Shown piece by piece: positions 4,297-57,791 of a stretch of DNA of 64,000 nt. A model generated the notes under the pieces. It made no database searches. It saw nothing but the letters and a program-made list of their open reading frames with translations, and was not told the origin of the DNA. Location: positions 24,738,001 through 24,802,000 of the forward strand of contig OX597818.1 of the NCBI GenBank assembly GCA_951406725.2, in the 5' to 3' direction. Position 1 is the first letter of the stretch, and each line of letters starts with the position of its first letter. A program made the position numbers and the translations under genes. The stretch is from Octopus vulgaris. Lineage: Eukaryota.

Positions 4297-4334
<38 letters not shown>

Positions 4335-4376
4335 CATTTCTAAATTTCTCAGAGAGATTTATACAGTAGCAGCATG

Positions 4377-4732
4377 ATAAAGTGATGGAAAGTTGCCAGC
4401 TTAATGTGGCAGTCCTATGAAAGGGAAGAATGCTACTGCTATTTAGCTTTAGAAAACACCGTTCCCAGTTGGCCACGACACATTCTCTGCGTCCTTATGT
4501 TTTCAAAGGCGAAAAAGCATTGACAGCTTGCAAGCCATGCTACTTCAGACTGATGATGTCTCTGGATGCTGGCTTTGCTGAGTGGAGGTGCTTATCTCCC
4601 TTTTGAAAACATAAGGACACAGAAAATGTGTCATGACCAACTGGGAACAGTGTTTCCTAGGGCTAAATAAAAGTAGCATTCTTCCCTTTCATGGGACTGC
4701 CACATTAAGCTGGCAACATACCATCACTTTAT
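4377..4732 (+). mobile_element. Palindromic non-autonomous element with ~145-bp inverted arms and an internally deleted hammerhead motif
   Basis: Ends ataaagtgatgg...ccatcactttat; arms about 4377-4520 and 4589-4732; centre contains tcagaCTGATGAt..GTCtctgg. Confidence 0.8.
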
Positions 4733-5201
4733 ATATATAAAATTGAGAATGTGTCTGTATATGTGAATCCCTAAAACTCGAGGACTACCCAATCGATTTC
4801 ATTCAAATTTTACACATGCATTACTTAGGGTCCATGGAAGGTCATGGGCCAAAAAATTTTCAACTTCTTGCCTAATGCAGACCCTGAGCAATTTTTTAGA
4901 CTGGTTTGGTATTATGTGTCAAAAGTGAATATTGTTTCACTTTTAATTCTATTGTGACAACACTAAGTTCAAGTTATATAAAAATACACAGTTACCATAA
5001 ACATAATTTTAAAAAAAGTCAAATAGATAAAATAAATTAAGTAAACAAAACAATTACAATGGTCATAAAATGTTCTTATACATCTCCAATAATTTTAATC
5101 TAAAATAATCTCTGCCCAGTTCATTATATAATAAGCTCTATATAATATGTTAAGAATTTATAGTGGAGTAGGAAATATATTTTATTTAAAATTTCTATAT
5201 A

Positions 5202-5561
5202 CTATGATGAAAAAAATAAATAAGGATATATTTTATTCAGACACTAAATTCATTAATAAAAAAAAAACTTTAATCAACAATTCATTCATTCAAAAATTTC
5301 TACTAAATATGCTGACATTAAACAAATGTATAAAGTTACAATTATTATAAATTATACTATTTCATCATCATCATCATCATCATCGTTGATGATGATGATG
5401 AAATAGTTTAGTTTATAATAATCATAACTTTATACATTTGTTTAATGTCGGAATATTTAGTAGAAACTTTTGAATGAATGAATTGTTGATTAAAAGTTTT
5501 TTTTTATTAATGAATTTAGTGTCTGAATAAAATATATCCTTATTTATTTTTTTCATCATAG
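5202..5561. repeat. 360-bp near-perfect palindrome
   Basis: ctatgatgaaaaaaataaataaggatata...tatatccttatttatttttttcatcatag, with (CAT)n-CGTT-(GAT)n at the centre. Confidence 0.95.
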
Positions 5562-7464
5562 GTTAATAATATATAAATAAAATATCAGAATTTTATTTAG
5601 TTTAGAGTAAGCCAATAGTTTTATTATTTTATAATTTTTGTTTGTATACAAATTTGAAAGAACATAAAATAAGGATATGTACTAAATATTATAGGATCTA
5701 CAAAAATATTCATATATGCACTAAGCAGTTTGCTGGTGTGTTAACACTTCTGCCAGCCCACTGCCTTTAGTGGAAAATATTACCCACAATAGACTAGTCT
5801 ATGGCCTAGTAACTACTCCACACCTTCAGTATACACAATGGAATTCTATCGTCCTTGCCACTGAACTGGTGTCTTCTAAATTTATGCACTGATTCCATAT
5901 TTATGCATATCTATTACATACTTAATTTGTTATAAATTATAACTGTTGACACTGTACACTAACTACTTAGATAAGCTGTTACTTGATTCATACATCAATT
6001 ACAAAGGACACTGTTACTTAAATTTCTTACATAATTGAATGACTCATCATAACTTGAGTAACCTTTACTGCTGCTCACACAAATATTATACCAAGGGACA
6101 TTATACTGATAATTTATAGTGAGTTATGCTCCTTGTGCTACATATATAAGAATATCATCTGAAATTTATCAAGAACAGCTGTATTGGAGAATATCTGGTA
6201 AATGAATGTTCATATGGTTTGCGTTTAATGCTTCTGTATCACATGCGTACTATATAAAAAAAGATTATATATGTGTGTGTGTGTGTATATGGATATAAAG
6301 GTATGGCTTTGTAGGTAAGAAATTTGTTTTGCAGCCATATGGTTTTTTTAGTTCACCCCCATTCTTCTACATCAATGTTATAGTAGAAGTGCTTTCTATT
6401 ATAACCTTGAGCTAACCAAAGCTTTGCAAGTGGAAATGGTGGATAGACACTGAAAGACGTCCACTCCATATCTGTGTTTGTGTCTCTTTGTATTGTCATC
6501 ACACTTTAATTATAAAGCAATGTTATTTGCTATCATCTATGAAAACATGTCTGGCCATTGTGCTGTCCCTATTGGAAAGACTAGAAAAACATTATCTTTC
6601 TTGGAAACAGATAAAGGCTGGTTGTAGAAAATTTGCCTTAACAAATTTCGCCTGGCCTGTGAAAACATGGAAGAGAGGACATTAAAATGATGGTGTATAT
6701 ATGTTGTATCTTGTACCTTTTACTTGTTTCTGTCATTGGACTGCTGCCATACAGTAGCACTACCTTGAAGGGTTTAGTCAAACAAATCGACTCCAGTATT
6801 TTTTTTTGTTGAATCAGTAAGTTACAGGGATGTAAGCAAACCAACACTGGTTGTCAAGTGGTGTATGTATATATGTGTGTGTCTGTGTGTATATATGTGT
6901 GTGTGTATGTATATATGTGTGTGTGTGTATGTATATATATCTATATATATATACATACACACATATATATATATATATATAGCTACACACACATGATGCA
7001 CTCCTTTAAATTTCTGTCTACTGAATCCTCTCACAAGGCTTTGGTTGGCCTGGGGTTGTAGTAGAGGACACTTGCTCAAACTGAAACAATGTGGGTGGGA
7101 CGCAAGCTTCTTACCACACAACTATGCTGCACTTATATGAGATGCAGTTATGTATTTGTGCGTATATATACACACACACACAGCCTTTGTATTTAGATTT
7201 CATTCATATGTGTAAGAATATTCCCACTAACTTTTAGTAATCATTGTTCTCAAAAATCTTACGCTGTGAAAAATTTTTCATGTGACAAAACTATGTGCTC
7301 ACTGAATGGATAAGTATAATCATTAATTACTACACAAACCTGTGCACCAGTTGAAAAATGTGTATGCACACATAAACACACATGCACAGCTTAGAAGTAA
7401 TAGTGATGTGCATGCCCCACAATATATGCATATTGTTTTTTAATGAAAATAAAATAATAATAAC

Positions 7465-7870
7465 GTGATGGTATGTTGTCAACTTAATGTGACAGTCCCA
7501 TGAAAGAGAAGAATGCTACTTTTATTTAGCCCTAGGAAACACCATTTCCTGTTGGTCTTGACACATTTCCTGTGTCCTTATGTTTTCAAAGGAGAGATAA
7601 GCACCTCCACCTGGCAAAGCCAGCACCCATAGACTAGTTTCAGAGTCATTGCTCATCATCAGTCTGGAGTAGCATGGCTTGCTAGCTGTCGATGCCTATT
7701 CGCCTTTGAAAACATATATTTCAAGTGAAATATATTCACTGATTTTGAAAATAGAAATAATACATTTCTAAATCTCTGAGAGAGATTTATACAGTAGCAG
7801 CATGATGCTAGCTTTGCTGGGTGAAGGTTCTTATCTCCCCTTTGAAAACATAAGGACAGAGGAACGCCAG
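7465..7870 (-). mobile_element. Second, rearranged copy of the same palindromic element
   Basis: 7465-7715 is the reverse complement of about 4495-4730. Segments 7762-7806 and 7807-7860 match 4334-4377 and about 4567-4622. Confidence 0.8.
7619..7673 (-). ncRNA. Minimal type I hammerhead ribozyme motif (degenerate)
   Basis: Minus strand reads GCTACTCCAGA-CTGATGA-TGAG CAATGA CTCT-GAAA-CTAG-TC^TATGGGTGCTGGC: full core, a GAG/CTC stem II, a palindromic stem III, a GUC triplet, and stem I with one mismatch. Confidence 0.65.
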
Positions 7871-28617: not shown

Positions 28618-28847
28618 CATATTACAATTAATAAGAGGAATGACACTAAAGTGGATTCCTATATGCTAGAGATAGATGTCAAATCGCCTTACCATAAAGA
28701 GTGTGTCCTCAAGAAGAAAAAAAAACCCAGCAAATGCCAAAATGTAAAAAATAAGCAAGGCAAATGAAAATTGATAAAATAATTTTGAATATGCTAGACA
28801 CTGGTTTAAATTGATGTTAATTGATTAATATCAATTTCTACCCTCAT

Positions 28848-29420
28848 GTAAAATTCTTTTTAGTTTTGGGTCCTTGTGTAGTATTGGTAGGTTTTGTATG
28901 ATTGTGCTGAATGCTTCTTTGTTTCTGGGGTTGTATGTGGAAATGCAGGGTAGTGTTTTAAGGAGAGGTTTGTTAATGTCTTTGGTTTTTCTTAATGTTT
29001 TGGTGTTGATAGATTTGGCACGTTTTATTCCTTCATTAATGAGTTGGATTGGGTGGTATCTATCCAGGAGGACATTTTTCAGTTCTTGTAATCTTGAATC
29101 TCAAGTTTTTTTTTTCTCTGAGACAATAGTGCAGATTCTTCTTGCCAAATCTATCAACACCAAGACATTAAGAAAAACCAAAGACATTGACAAACCTCTC
29201 CTTAAAACACTACCCTGCATTTCCACATACAACCCCAGAAACAAAGAAGGATTCAGCACAATCATACAAAACCTACCAATACTACACAAGGACCCAAAAC
29301 TAAAAAGAATTTTACTTGACATTAAAATTGTCAAAAGCAACAAACAACTTAAGTAATTAAAGAAACTTCTACACAAGCCCAACTCAATAAAGAGACATAT
29401 TTCATCCAAAAATACAAACC
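28848..29420. mobile_element. Penelope-like element fragment with a 173-bp inverted duplication
   Basis: Minus strand reads LARRICTIVSE...RLQELKNVLLDRYHPIQLINEGIKRAK...ISTYNPRN...NLPILHKDPKL (PLE post-RT region). Arms are 28848-29020 and 29143-29315. Confidence 0.8.
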
Positions 29421-56365: not shown

Positions 56366-56524
56366 TAAAAGAAATACTGTTGTACTCTCTTGGTGAAGGA
56401 TGACAGGCAATTCACTATAAATCAAATAGCCAATGCTATTAGTATATCCCATTAGAGAGTTATTCTACACAACAAACTTAGCATAACGAATGTTTCTGCT
56501 TAGTGGATGCCACATCTGACACCT

Positions 56525-57791
56525 GAGGGTCAGCTGTAAAGTGCATAGACTGATCAAGATACTCGCATGCAATGCGACCAATGAGGTTTATTTTTCAACA
56601 AGACCTCTTGCAGTCCCCTCACTTCTTCCATCAGTGTTGCAGTGCTTGGATTCAATTGGTGAAAAAGTGTCATCACCAGTAGATATGACATCATCACCAC
56701 TGCAATACCAGTTCCCAGCCAGGTGCTTTTTCATGGTGGAGAACAAGTAATAGTCAGATAGGGCCAAATCAGGAAAACAGGGAGTGTGATCAACCAGTTC
56801 AAAGCCACAGTCATGCACAGCAACCATTGAAAAGAAGGACTTGTGTACTCCATTTACAAGACTTTGATTGGTTTGGGACTATCTTTGAATGTAACAAGAC
56901 TCCTTTCATCAGTTTTCCTGGGTGTTTGGTCTTGATAGCCTTTTATAACTGTCTTAGCAAACTGAAATAGTATTCTCCATTGATGGTGTGGTCCTTTTGA
57001 AGATAATCAATAAACACAATTCCTTTCTCATCCCCCAAAACTGAGGCCATCACATTCTCTGTAGATAAAATGACCTCTGCCTTTTTTGGAGCAGGAGAGG
57101 AAGGGTGTTTCCATTGCATGTATTGTCTGTTTGTCTCTGGCTGAAAGTGATAAAGCCAACACTTATCCTGTGTTAGGTAATGTTCAAGGAAGCCAGTTGG
57201 ATCTGCCTCAAACAATATCAAATTTTCCTGTGATATGATTAGTCTGGTGCACTTTTGATCAGGTGTCAGATGTGGCATCCACTAAGCAGAAACATTTGTC
57301 ATGCCAAGTTTGTTGTGTAGAATAACTCTCTAATGGGATATGCTAATAGCATTGGCTATTTGATTTATAGTGAATTGCTTGTCATCCTTCACCATGTGGT
57401 GAACACAATCAATGTTTTCTTAGGTGATGATAGTTACAGTATGTCCAGACCTTGGGTCATCTTCAAGACTCTCCCTTCTCCTCCTAAGTTCAGCTGCCCA
57501 CTTTTGTACTGTTGATAAAGGTGGAGCAGCATTCCCTAATGTAACAACCATGTCACTTTATATGCCCTAGGGATCTAAACCCTTTTTCTACTGGTTCTTG
57601 ATAACACCATGAATCCAAATTTTGTCCATCTTCAAGTGAAGTCGCTACTAATTACTTTTGAAGTTTTCTTTGAACAGTCAGTTGACTTGGAAAGAAACAA
57701 TGTAGTTATTAAGAAGGAGAGGTGACATTAATGCAGGCAAGATTTCACAGCTCTAGTATAGTCAGCCTATGAACTTTTCAGCTCAACCTTG
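56525..57791 (-). mobile_element. Near full-length degenerate mariner element
   Basis: TIRs gagggtcagctgtaaagtgcatagactga and tcagcctatgaacttttcagctcaaccttg|TA. Minus-strand remnants WMPHLTPDQK, TQDKCW, QWKHPSSPAPKK and PDLALSDYYLF. Confidence 0.9.

Follow-up and report, generated by a model that had tools for sequence, protein, structure and literature searches.

The canonical metazoan type I hammerhead is defined by a 6-bp helix I and a short palindromic helix III, and a U3-A8 swap in the core is a known hammerhead variant (PMC4209133). Among retrozyme hammerheads, axolotl HHR_Amex2, which carries U.U at the base of helix II, cleaves at 22% as a monomer and much better as a dimer (PMC7229834), and one of nine predicted Xenopus dimers cleaved (bioRxiv 10.64898/2026.07.22.740005). 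The same preprint argues from co-occurrence and from Xenopus homology that retrozymes are non-autonomous Penelope-like elements (PLEs). PLE insertions owe their tail to reverse transcription that starts at two internal sites, and this tail is called PLE-specific (PMC11167929). Newt satellite 2, a hammerhead repeat, has an internal Pol II promoter of the snRNA type (cited in PMC2220036). Tx1-clade LINEs have fixed targets, namely Tx1L in Tx1D, Keno in U2, and Tx1-Mar in Mariner-N4 (PMC4494074). The repeat annotation of Octopus vulgaris lists active Penelope and L1-Tx1 families (PMC13282606); its main text makes no mention of ribozymes, and its supplements may hold the families described below.

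Here, we analyzed 64,000 nt of the O. vulgaris genome (contig OX597818.1, positions 24,738,001 to 24,802,000, forward strand), which we call the window and to whose first letter coordinates refer. With a probability of roughly 0.8, the window carries a predicted canonical type I hammerhead within a 348-bp non-coding retrozyme, which is likely transcribed from its own snRNA-type promoter and likely copied by the RT/GIY-YIG enzymes of PLEs. The features of the locus and of a sister insertion were as follows.

7462..7806, minus strand: family A retrozyme, an almost complete monomer (positions 2-348), by BLAST to the family consensus (94%)
7735..7743, minus strand: PSE-like box that matches the promoter box of U1/U2 genes in this genome, by the snRNA-derived matrix
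7672..7688, minus strand: predicted +1 region (monomer 122-138), the LINE target duplicated in other copies and empty here
7578..7714, minus strand: intrinsic hairpin of ~140 nt with the hammerhead at its tip (fold z -7.7)
7626..7668, minus strand: type I hammerhead motif, cleavage predicted after 7632, with a G.A mismatch in stem I peculiar to this copy
7668-7663, minus strand: stem I, 5' strand
7662-7656, minus strand: core box CTGATGA
7655-7642, minus strand: stem II
7641-7638, minus strand: core box GAAA
7638-7633, minus strand: stem III, ACTAGT
3' of 7632, minus strand: predicted cleavage site
7631-7626, minus strand: stem I, 3' strand
7804..7864, plus strand: inverted 5'-truncated fragment (monomer 183-243, 61 bp), head to head with the main copy
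4496..4730, plus strand: sister insertion, direct arm (monomer 94-348), hammerhead minus ~21 nt
4323..4508, minus strand: sister insertion, inverted arm (monomer 219-348 plus a ~56-bp tail; locus L228)

An initial annotation had quoted the hammerhead on the minus strand from 7673 to 7619; the strand and start were right, but the quoted letters end at 7627. Both core boxes, ACTAGT, and GTC were all found within 7673-7627, and CUGANGA, GAAA, and NUH stood in the type I order. Judged from its letters, the hammerhead at 7668-7626 is real, with predicted cleavage; in itself, it is an ordinary representative of a known class, lying within a new retrozyme superfamily. The label of a minimal type I form was mistaken, as by the definition in PMC4209133 the motif is a canonical metazoan type I hammerhead. 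In the window copy, stem I forms five of six pairs, with the G.A mismatch at pair 2, and stem II comprises 3 bp with a T.T mismatch at its base. The T.T had been offered as a reason why this copy may be inactive; it is present, but it represents the family consensus (T in 55/69 and 62/70 aligned segments), and the defect of this copy is instead the G.A in stem I. The window copy is a decayed insertion that probably cleaves poorly. The region 7570-7720 folded with a z of -7.7, and none of 200 shuffles was as stable. Here, a 14-bp inverted repeat (monomer 94-107 pairing with 219-232) closes the hairpin, and this closing stem was kept in family B with compensatory changes. The RNA had been pictured as one long hairpin topped by the ribozyme; the hairpin is indeed intrinsic to the unit, but it extends over ~140 nt only.

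Next, the hammerhead was compared across the genome and across four families (A to D). A 35-nt core pattern gave 168 exact genomic matches, with none for its reversed control. Over 85 loci, core positions mismatched in 22 of 738 cases (3.0%) against 1566 of 17876 (8.8%) at the other non-CpG positions, with medians of 3.0% and 5.6%, respectively, indicating that the core is better conserved than its flanks. The family consensus retained the core and the stem I pairing. Of the 30 stem I cells in A, B, C, D, and one B-like copy, 29 were paired, whereas in a control with the 3' strands deranged between families the mean was 18 and the highest count 21 of 30. Pair counts were taken from a motif-anchored alignment, as a MAFFT alignment placed loop III wrongly. 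Stem III was palindromic in all four families with four different sequences, and family D carried the U3-A8 core swap. The proposed type I fold with a palindromic stem III was, therefore, borne out by the core order and by the covariation, which is compensatory in stem I and palindrome-preserving in stem III. A standard pair at the base of stem II, next to A9/G12, was found in family D alone; this position reads U.U in A, C.A in B and in a subset of A, and A.G in C. The suggested search with hammerhead models went the other way. The Rfam scan returned no significant hammerhead for the window copy or for one family D copy, and a family B copy reached 11.6 bits against RF00163 (E 5.4), below the threshold. 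Furthermore, just 25 of the 59 segments spanning the motif held intact hammerheads.

The family A repeat is present in many hundreds of copies; its 121-bp centre gave 1407 first-look candidates in the 2.8-Gb genome (40 scored), and a 21-nt flank pattern gave 228 genomic matches, with none for the reversed control. A consensus from 55 loci defined a unit of 348 bp, which occurs in head-to-tail repeats. Family A has at least three sister families, colinear in sequence. Family B (2521 first-look candidates, 357 bp, 57% identity to A) was found through a diverged insertion beside a PLE; families C (351 bp) and D (362 bp), as well as further variants, were found through LINE flanks, and family D copies were mostly 97-99% alike. 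These units share the features of non-LTR retrozymes: non-coding, 150-450 bp, one hammerhead, and tandem occurrence. As circles, the hammerhead strands of A, B, and D folded with z of -9.7, -6.4, and -6.2, indicating strong self-pairing; the opposite strand of A gave -5.0, and the antisense strand of B had a stronger z than its sense strand. One decayed family C copy (z -1.6) folded no better than shuffles. The family A fold spans the unit junction, since a stem forms between the 3' region of one unit and the beginning of the following one. Older retrozyme families, whose cores and cleavage triplets (GAC, for example) are variant, were also observed (L251, L254, L255, L270, L283, and L291). 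Contigs from sequencing runs that we guessed to be RNA covered families A and D and carry no strand, end, or level information; one, of 392 nt, held one D unit plus a terminal repeat, which is compatible with a circle or a multimer but also with tandem DNA. Joints across the unit junction also occurred in a large unlabelled run (X15), so such joints do not show circles. Literature searches on hammerhead with octopus and on retrozymes with cephalopod gave no description of these families, which Repbase may hold.

We then analyzed the insertion architecture. Loci were chosen by the flank pattern, avoiding selection on the core, and 85 loci with 145 segments were obtained: 27 of 30 (3 overlapping ones dropped) and 58 of 70, among the matches listed of the 228; another 128 lay outside, and loci from earlier searches were mostly skipped. 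The 3' ends fell at two positions ~57 bp apart (59 at 342-356 and 52 at 396-416, together 111 of the 145 segments), and the 5' ends varied. Head-to-head inverted pairs were seen at 46/85 loci, exactly one arm bore the tail in 32 of 47 inverted pairs, and ten loci were continuous over more than 380 bp. Tail length was 41-46 bp in B and about 55-60 bp in A. (TA)3+ lay beside 21 of 111 terminal ends versus 133 of 3022 background windows, and non-simple duplications of 8-15 bp flanked 23 of 85 loci versus 13 of 600 shuffled pairs (cut-off of at least 8 nt). An optional 3' tail, inverted 5'-truncated copies, partial tandems, and an AT-rich target are thus combined here, and this matches the PLE architecture described in PMC8557442. 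No pile-up of 5' ends was seen at the cleavage site, where 6 of 145 segments start (177-182), a density like that of the neighbouring positions.

The initial annotation had placed the ribozyme at the centre of a palindromic element. Instead, 7462-7864 consists of the near-full monomer plus the 61-bp inverted fragment, and in the window 4323-4730 alone looks palindromic, where two copies are joined head to head, with (TA)n flanks on both sides. The palindromic look arises where the junction with the inverted copy falls on the 14-bp inverted repeat inside the unit. The TCTGGA reported in this sister copy at 4561-4566 is present; the ~21 nt gone from it represent most of stem II, GAAA, and stem III. 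The element is not intrinsically a palindrome; the palindrome is a by-product of insertion. Two other inverted repeats were noted in the window: 5181-5582 holds a 196-nt inverted repeat (AT-rich, 90%, with a (CAT)n/(GAT)n centre) that is MITE-like or a foldback, and 56391-57394 holds inverted arms of 136 nt (96%) separated by 732 bp, possibly a non-autonomous DNA transposon.

The suggestion of a retrozyme or PLE-dependent family was upheld by the unit features together with the PLE-style insertion signature. Mobilization by PLE-type enzymes is likely: the insertions carry the signature, and the enzyme is deduced from it. The genome contained 6136 GIY-YIG candidates, and many of the best 150, which were scored, belonged to one young family, in which a 781-aa RT plus GIY-YIG ORF is intact and a CxxxxCxxC linker is present; we call this family Neptune-like because the linker fits the description in PMC8557442. 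One such element showed the same head-to-head structure as the retrozyme. A full-length young copy (L121:430-5724, G000:C16) has a 456-bp pLTR and a 359-aa ORF upstream of the 781-aa RT-EN ORF, and close to its 3' end lies a hammerhead of the U3-A8 variant type. The window itself holds Neptune-like RT fragments at 28844-29395, a head-to-head inverted pair with 177-nt arms (98%), in which an autonomous family displays a PLE architecture like that of the retrozyme. No autonomous partner sharing a terminus or sequence with the monomer was found in 50 PLE loci (30 GIY-YIG and 20 extended), so the partner is inferred, and it may have been missed because only the best 150 of 6136 candidates were scored. 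A match in L124 was rejected as a partner, being a separate family B insertion, and the features common to Neptune 3' ends and retrozymes, a short AG(C/T)AGCATT motif together with a small hairpin in the tail, were too weak to count. Since copies extend over the cleavage site as well as position 122, without a pile-up at the former, the template is a circle or an uncleaved multimer.

Position 122 was also the site of LINE insertion. Thirteen segments started at 122-123, each preceded by an AATAAA-like LINE 3' end, and none of these 5' ends was a LINE-free run-off copy. Ten loci were extended; in five of them, the retrozyme part to the left of the insertion ended at 134-138, giving 12-17-bp duplications, and L238 held two nested LINE insertions at the target site. 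To sample LINEs independently, searches were made by LINE 3' ends alone (30 loci each), leaving 56 after four seed loci were dropped. As a result, 33 of the 56 3' ends lay 12-45 nt upstream of a hammerhead core, as compared with 111 of 5067 control windows (2%) containing the hammerhead pattern; the proportion is above the 20% of flanks by which PMC4494074 recognizes target specificity. Another 11 of the 56 preceded the 5' end of another LINE, and 12 lay elsewhere, some at decayed retrozymes and three at one other repeat. In L247, L248, and L249, LINE 3' flanks were observed to have one common non-hammerhead target repeat. Insertion at the predicted +1 with 12-17-bp duplications was seen in families A and D, and LINE 3' ends abutted the same position in family C and in other families.

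The junction was then compared with snRNA genes. In U1/U2 loci, the promoter box lay at -57 to -61 in 28 of 30, and the snRNA-derived matrix had its best match in the whole A monomer, over both strands, at -57 from the LINE junction. The box was found at -66 in family B, at -59 in L245 of family C (in the one C copy scanned, it was not among the top matches), and, weaker and third in rank, at -57 in family D. From this short motif and its position, monomer position 122 is likely to be the retrozyme's transcription start, driven by an snRNA-type promoter. In two other U2 loci (2/30), a full-length LINE lay at +1 downstream of the box with a 14-bp duplication, and this LINE and the D-targeting LINE were 87% identical in the endonuclease and 88-89% in the RT; in the same comparison, the A-targeting LINE in L238 showed 63% and 75%, respectively. 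No LINE was seen at U1 +1 in 15 loci. The U2 genes were many, near-identical, both dispersed and clustered, with at least three promoter types having one common box (L313-L327; G000:C23:43306609-43322847; C3:20775429-20835961). Literature searches on retrozyme with snRNA promoter returned no description.

The LINE of family D was intact at 5.37 kb, with a 512-aa ORF1 containing a zinc knuckle and an 1140-aa ORF2 containing APE, RT, and a zinc finger (Pfam). At several loci, among them a stack of five copies and a copy truncated at its 5' end, it was found in one and the same site with a duplication of 16-17 bp, and it scored 484 bits against a metagenomic Keno-type element inserted at U2 position 36 versus 228 bits against human L1 ORF2p. 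Its domains and this closer similarity to Keno-type than to L1 indirectly identify it as Tx1-like; searches with protein homologues and in Atlas gave no clade name. Non-autonomous derivatives of 1.5-2.2 kb that kept ORF1-like sequence were observed at L231-L237 and L307-L309, with an unchanged target site and often stacked behind autonomous copies. Among 57 metagenomic relatives, the 21 scanned had no hammerhead at their ends; in three metagenomic loci (L345, L350, and L381), Keno-type LINEs abutted U2 position 36. Our literature searches on Tx1 with hammerhead and on Tx1 targets gave no description of LINE targeting at hammerhead retrozymes.

Several other readings of these repeats were weighed. 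The most serious, though improbable, sees the repeat not as a stand-alone retrozyme but as a pseudo-LTR, belonging to an autonomous PLE whose ORF-bearing copies were not sampled. Every insertion feature is of PLE type, hammerheads do occur in PLE pLTRs (PMC4209133), and the scored GIY-YIG candidates were the best 150 of 6136; nevertheless, the units directly adjoin with a 348-bp period and no ORF, as seen in the ten loci continuous beyond 380 bp, and the tail leads directly into the hammerhead hairpin. Moreover, family A loci had no PLE protein match, the hammerhead is canonical rather than minimal, and the unit size resembles that of mussel retrozymes (350-390 bp). Far less probable is that the Tx1-like LINE, instead of a PLE, mobilizes the retrozyme in a SINE-like manner or by 3' transduction. 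This would account for chimeras in which a LINE 3' end and retrozyme 122-348 had moved together (L171, L197, L222, L111, and L305), but these chimeras stop at the two retrozyme 3' ends and have inverted copies, which is the PLE pattern and shows that read-through RNA was also moved PLE-style. True LINE insertions, in addition, retain the left half of the target and the 12-17-bp duplication, and the retrozyme and LINE have no common 3' tail.

The remaining two readings are hardly credible. A palindromic element of the MITE or foldback DNA type, with TIRs and, by chance, a hammerhead-like centre, would explain the 136-bp, 89% complementary arms of 4323-4730; yet junction positions vary between loci, the tail is usually on one arm, the duplications are of 8-15 bp and not TA, 39 of the 85 loci have no inverted arm, and the centred form, including 4323-4730, was found in five (a sixth listed by the script, L111, was discarded as an artefact of the alignment). 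This reading was rejected, being largely refuted by the distribution of ends over the 85 loci. Similarly, a C/D-box or K-turn element (RTGATGA ... CTGA) drew on weak snoRNA matches over the hammerhead letters (SNORD109A, E 0.31), and it was rejected with next to no weight left, as families B, C, and D lack the second CTGA and keep GAAA, the cleavage triplet, and stems I-III.

We thus return to a PLE-copied hammerhead retrozyme, for which we propose the following course. The PSE-like box would direct a Pol II start near monomer 122, and in tandem copies the transcript would continue into the next unit. Judging from structure and covariation, successive hammerheads would then cleave, probably as dimers through the palindromic stem III, to release a highly paired 348-nt monomer able to circularize. 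A PLE enzyme would insert the retrozyme from either form of template named above, leaving in the DNA two 3' ends, inverted copies, and 8-15-bp duplications. The Tx1-like LINE lands at the predicted +1, as its relative does at U2 +1, and may thereby gain a host promoter upstream and a host ribozyme ~57 nt downstream of its own 3' end. A wider reading, to which we give somewhat less than even odds, is a three-layer parasite system in which circular retrozymes with snRNA promoters exploit Neptune-type PLE enzymes and Tx1-like LINEs in turn choose transcription starts. The LINE site would then be set by the snRNA-type transcription start rather than by endonuclease sequence readout, either through tethering of the LINE to the promoter complex or through target homology on LINE read-through RNA trimmed by the host hammerhead. 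If true, this would explain how 87% identical endonucleases act at the unrelated sequences of retrozyme D and U2 +1.

These results bear on which enzyme mobilizes animal retrozymes and how they are transcribed. As in the mussel (350-390 bp) and axolotl (Rtz_353/HHR_Amex2) retrozymes of PMC7229834, the octopus unit is short, non-coding, and capable of tandem repetition; a canonical type I hammerhead, a highly paired predicted circle, duplications of more than 4 bp, and PLEs in the genome are likewise common to both, and HHR_Amex2 has the same U.U at the base of helix II as family A. In contrast to the long arrays of metazoan retrozymes, the octopus copies are mostly dispersed and 5'-truncated, with PLE tails and inverted arms; the host is a cephalopod, and the circular RNA is a prediction here. 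With PLEs (PMC8557442; Poseidon of Anolis, PMC11167929), the retrozyme shares two 3' ends, a tail, partial tandems, inverted 5'-truncated copies, AT-rich/(TA)n targets, and a hammerhead, but it differs in having no ORF and no homology to any sampled PLE pLTR, and its tails exceed the 30-40 bp reported for PLEs. The preprint's case for PLE mobilization (10.64898/2026.07.22.740005) was made from co-occurrence and homology, whereas here the insertion signature itself, a PLE tail with inverted copies on an ORF-less retrozyme, provides direct genomic evidence. As young retrozyme D and young intact Neptune ORFs occur in one genome, such mobilization can be tested in vitro.

Newt satellite 2 is alike in promoter type, the octopus promoter being predicted from motif and position. 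With the target-specific Tx1 LINEs of PMC4494074, the octopus LINE shares an ORF1 zinc knuckle, APE and RT in ORF2, a fixed site in a multicopy target, and tandem stacking. Since the Tx1 targets given there include other transposons, targeting of a mobile repeat is known in kind. The octopus targets differ in being hammerhead retrozymes of unrelated local sequence together with U2 +1, while Keno-type relatives in metagenomes use U2 position 36 and not +1. Insertion of a LINE at an snRNA-type +1 upstream of a borrowed ribozyme would, if true, be a new targeting rule, and site-specific retrotransposons are of interest as gene-insertion tools. What the octopus repeats add is a PLE insertion signature, together with a predicted snRNA-type promoter and a LINE by which it is targeted.
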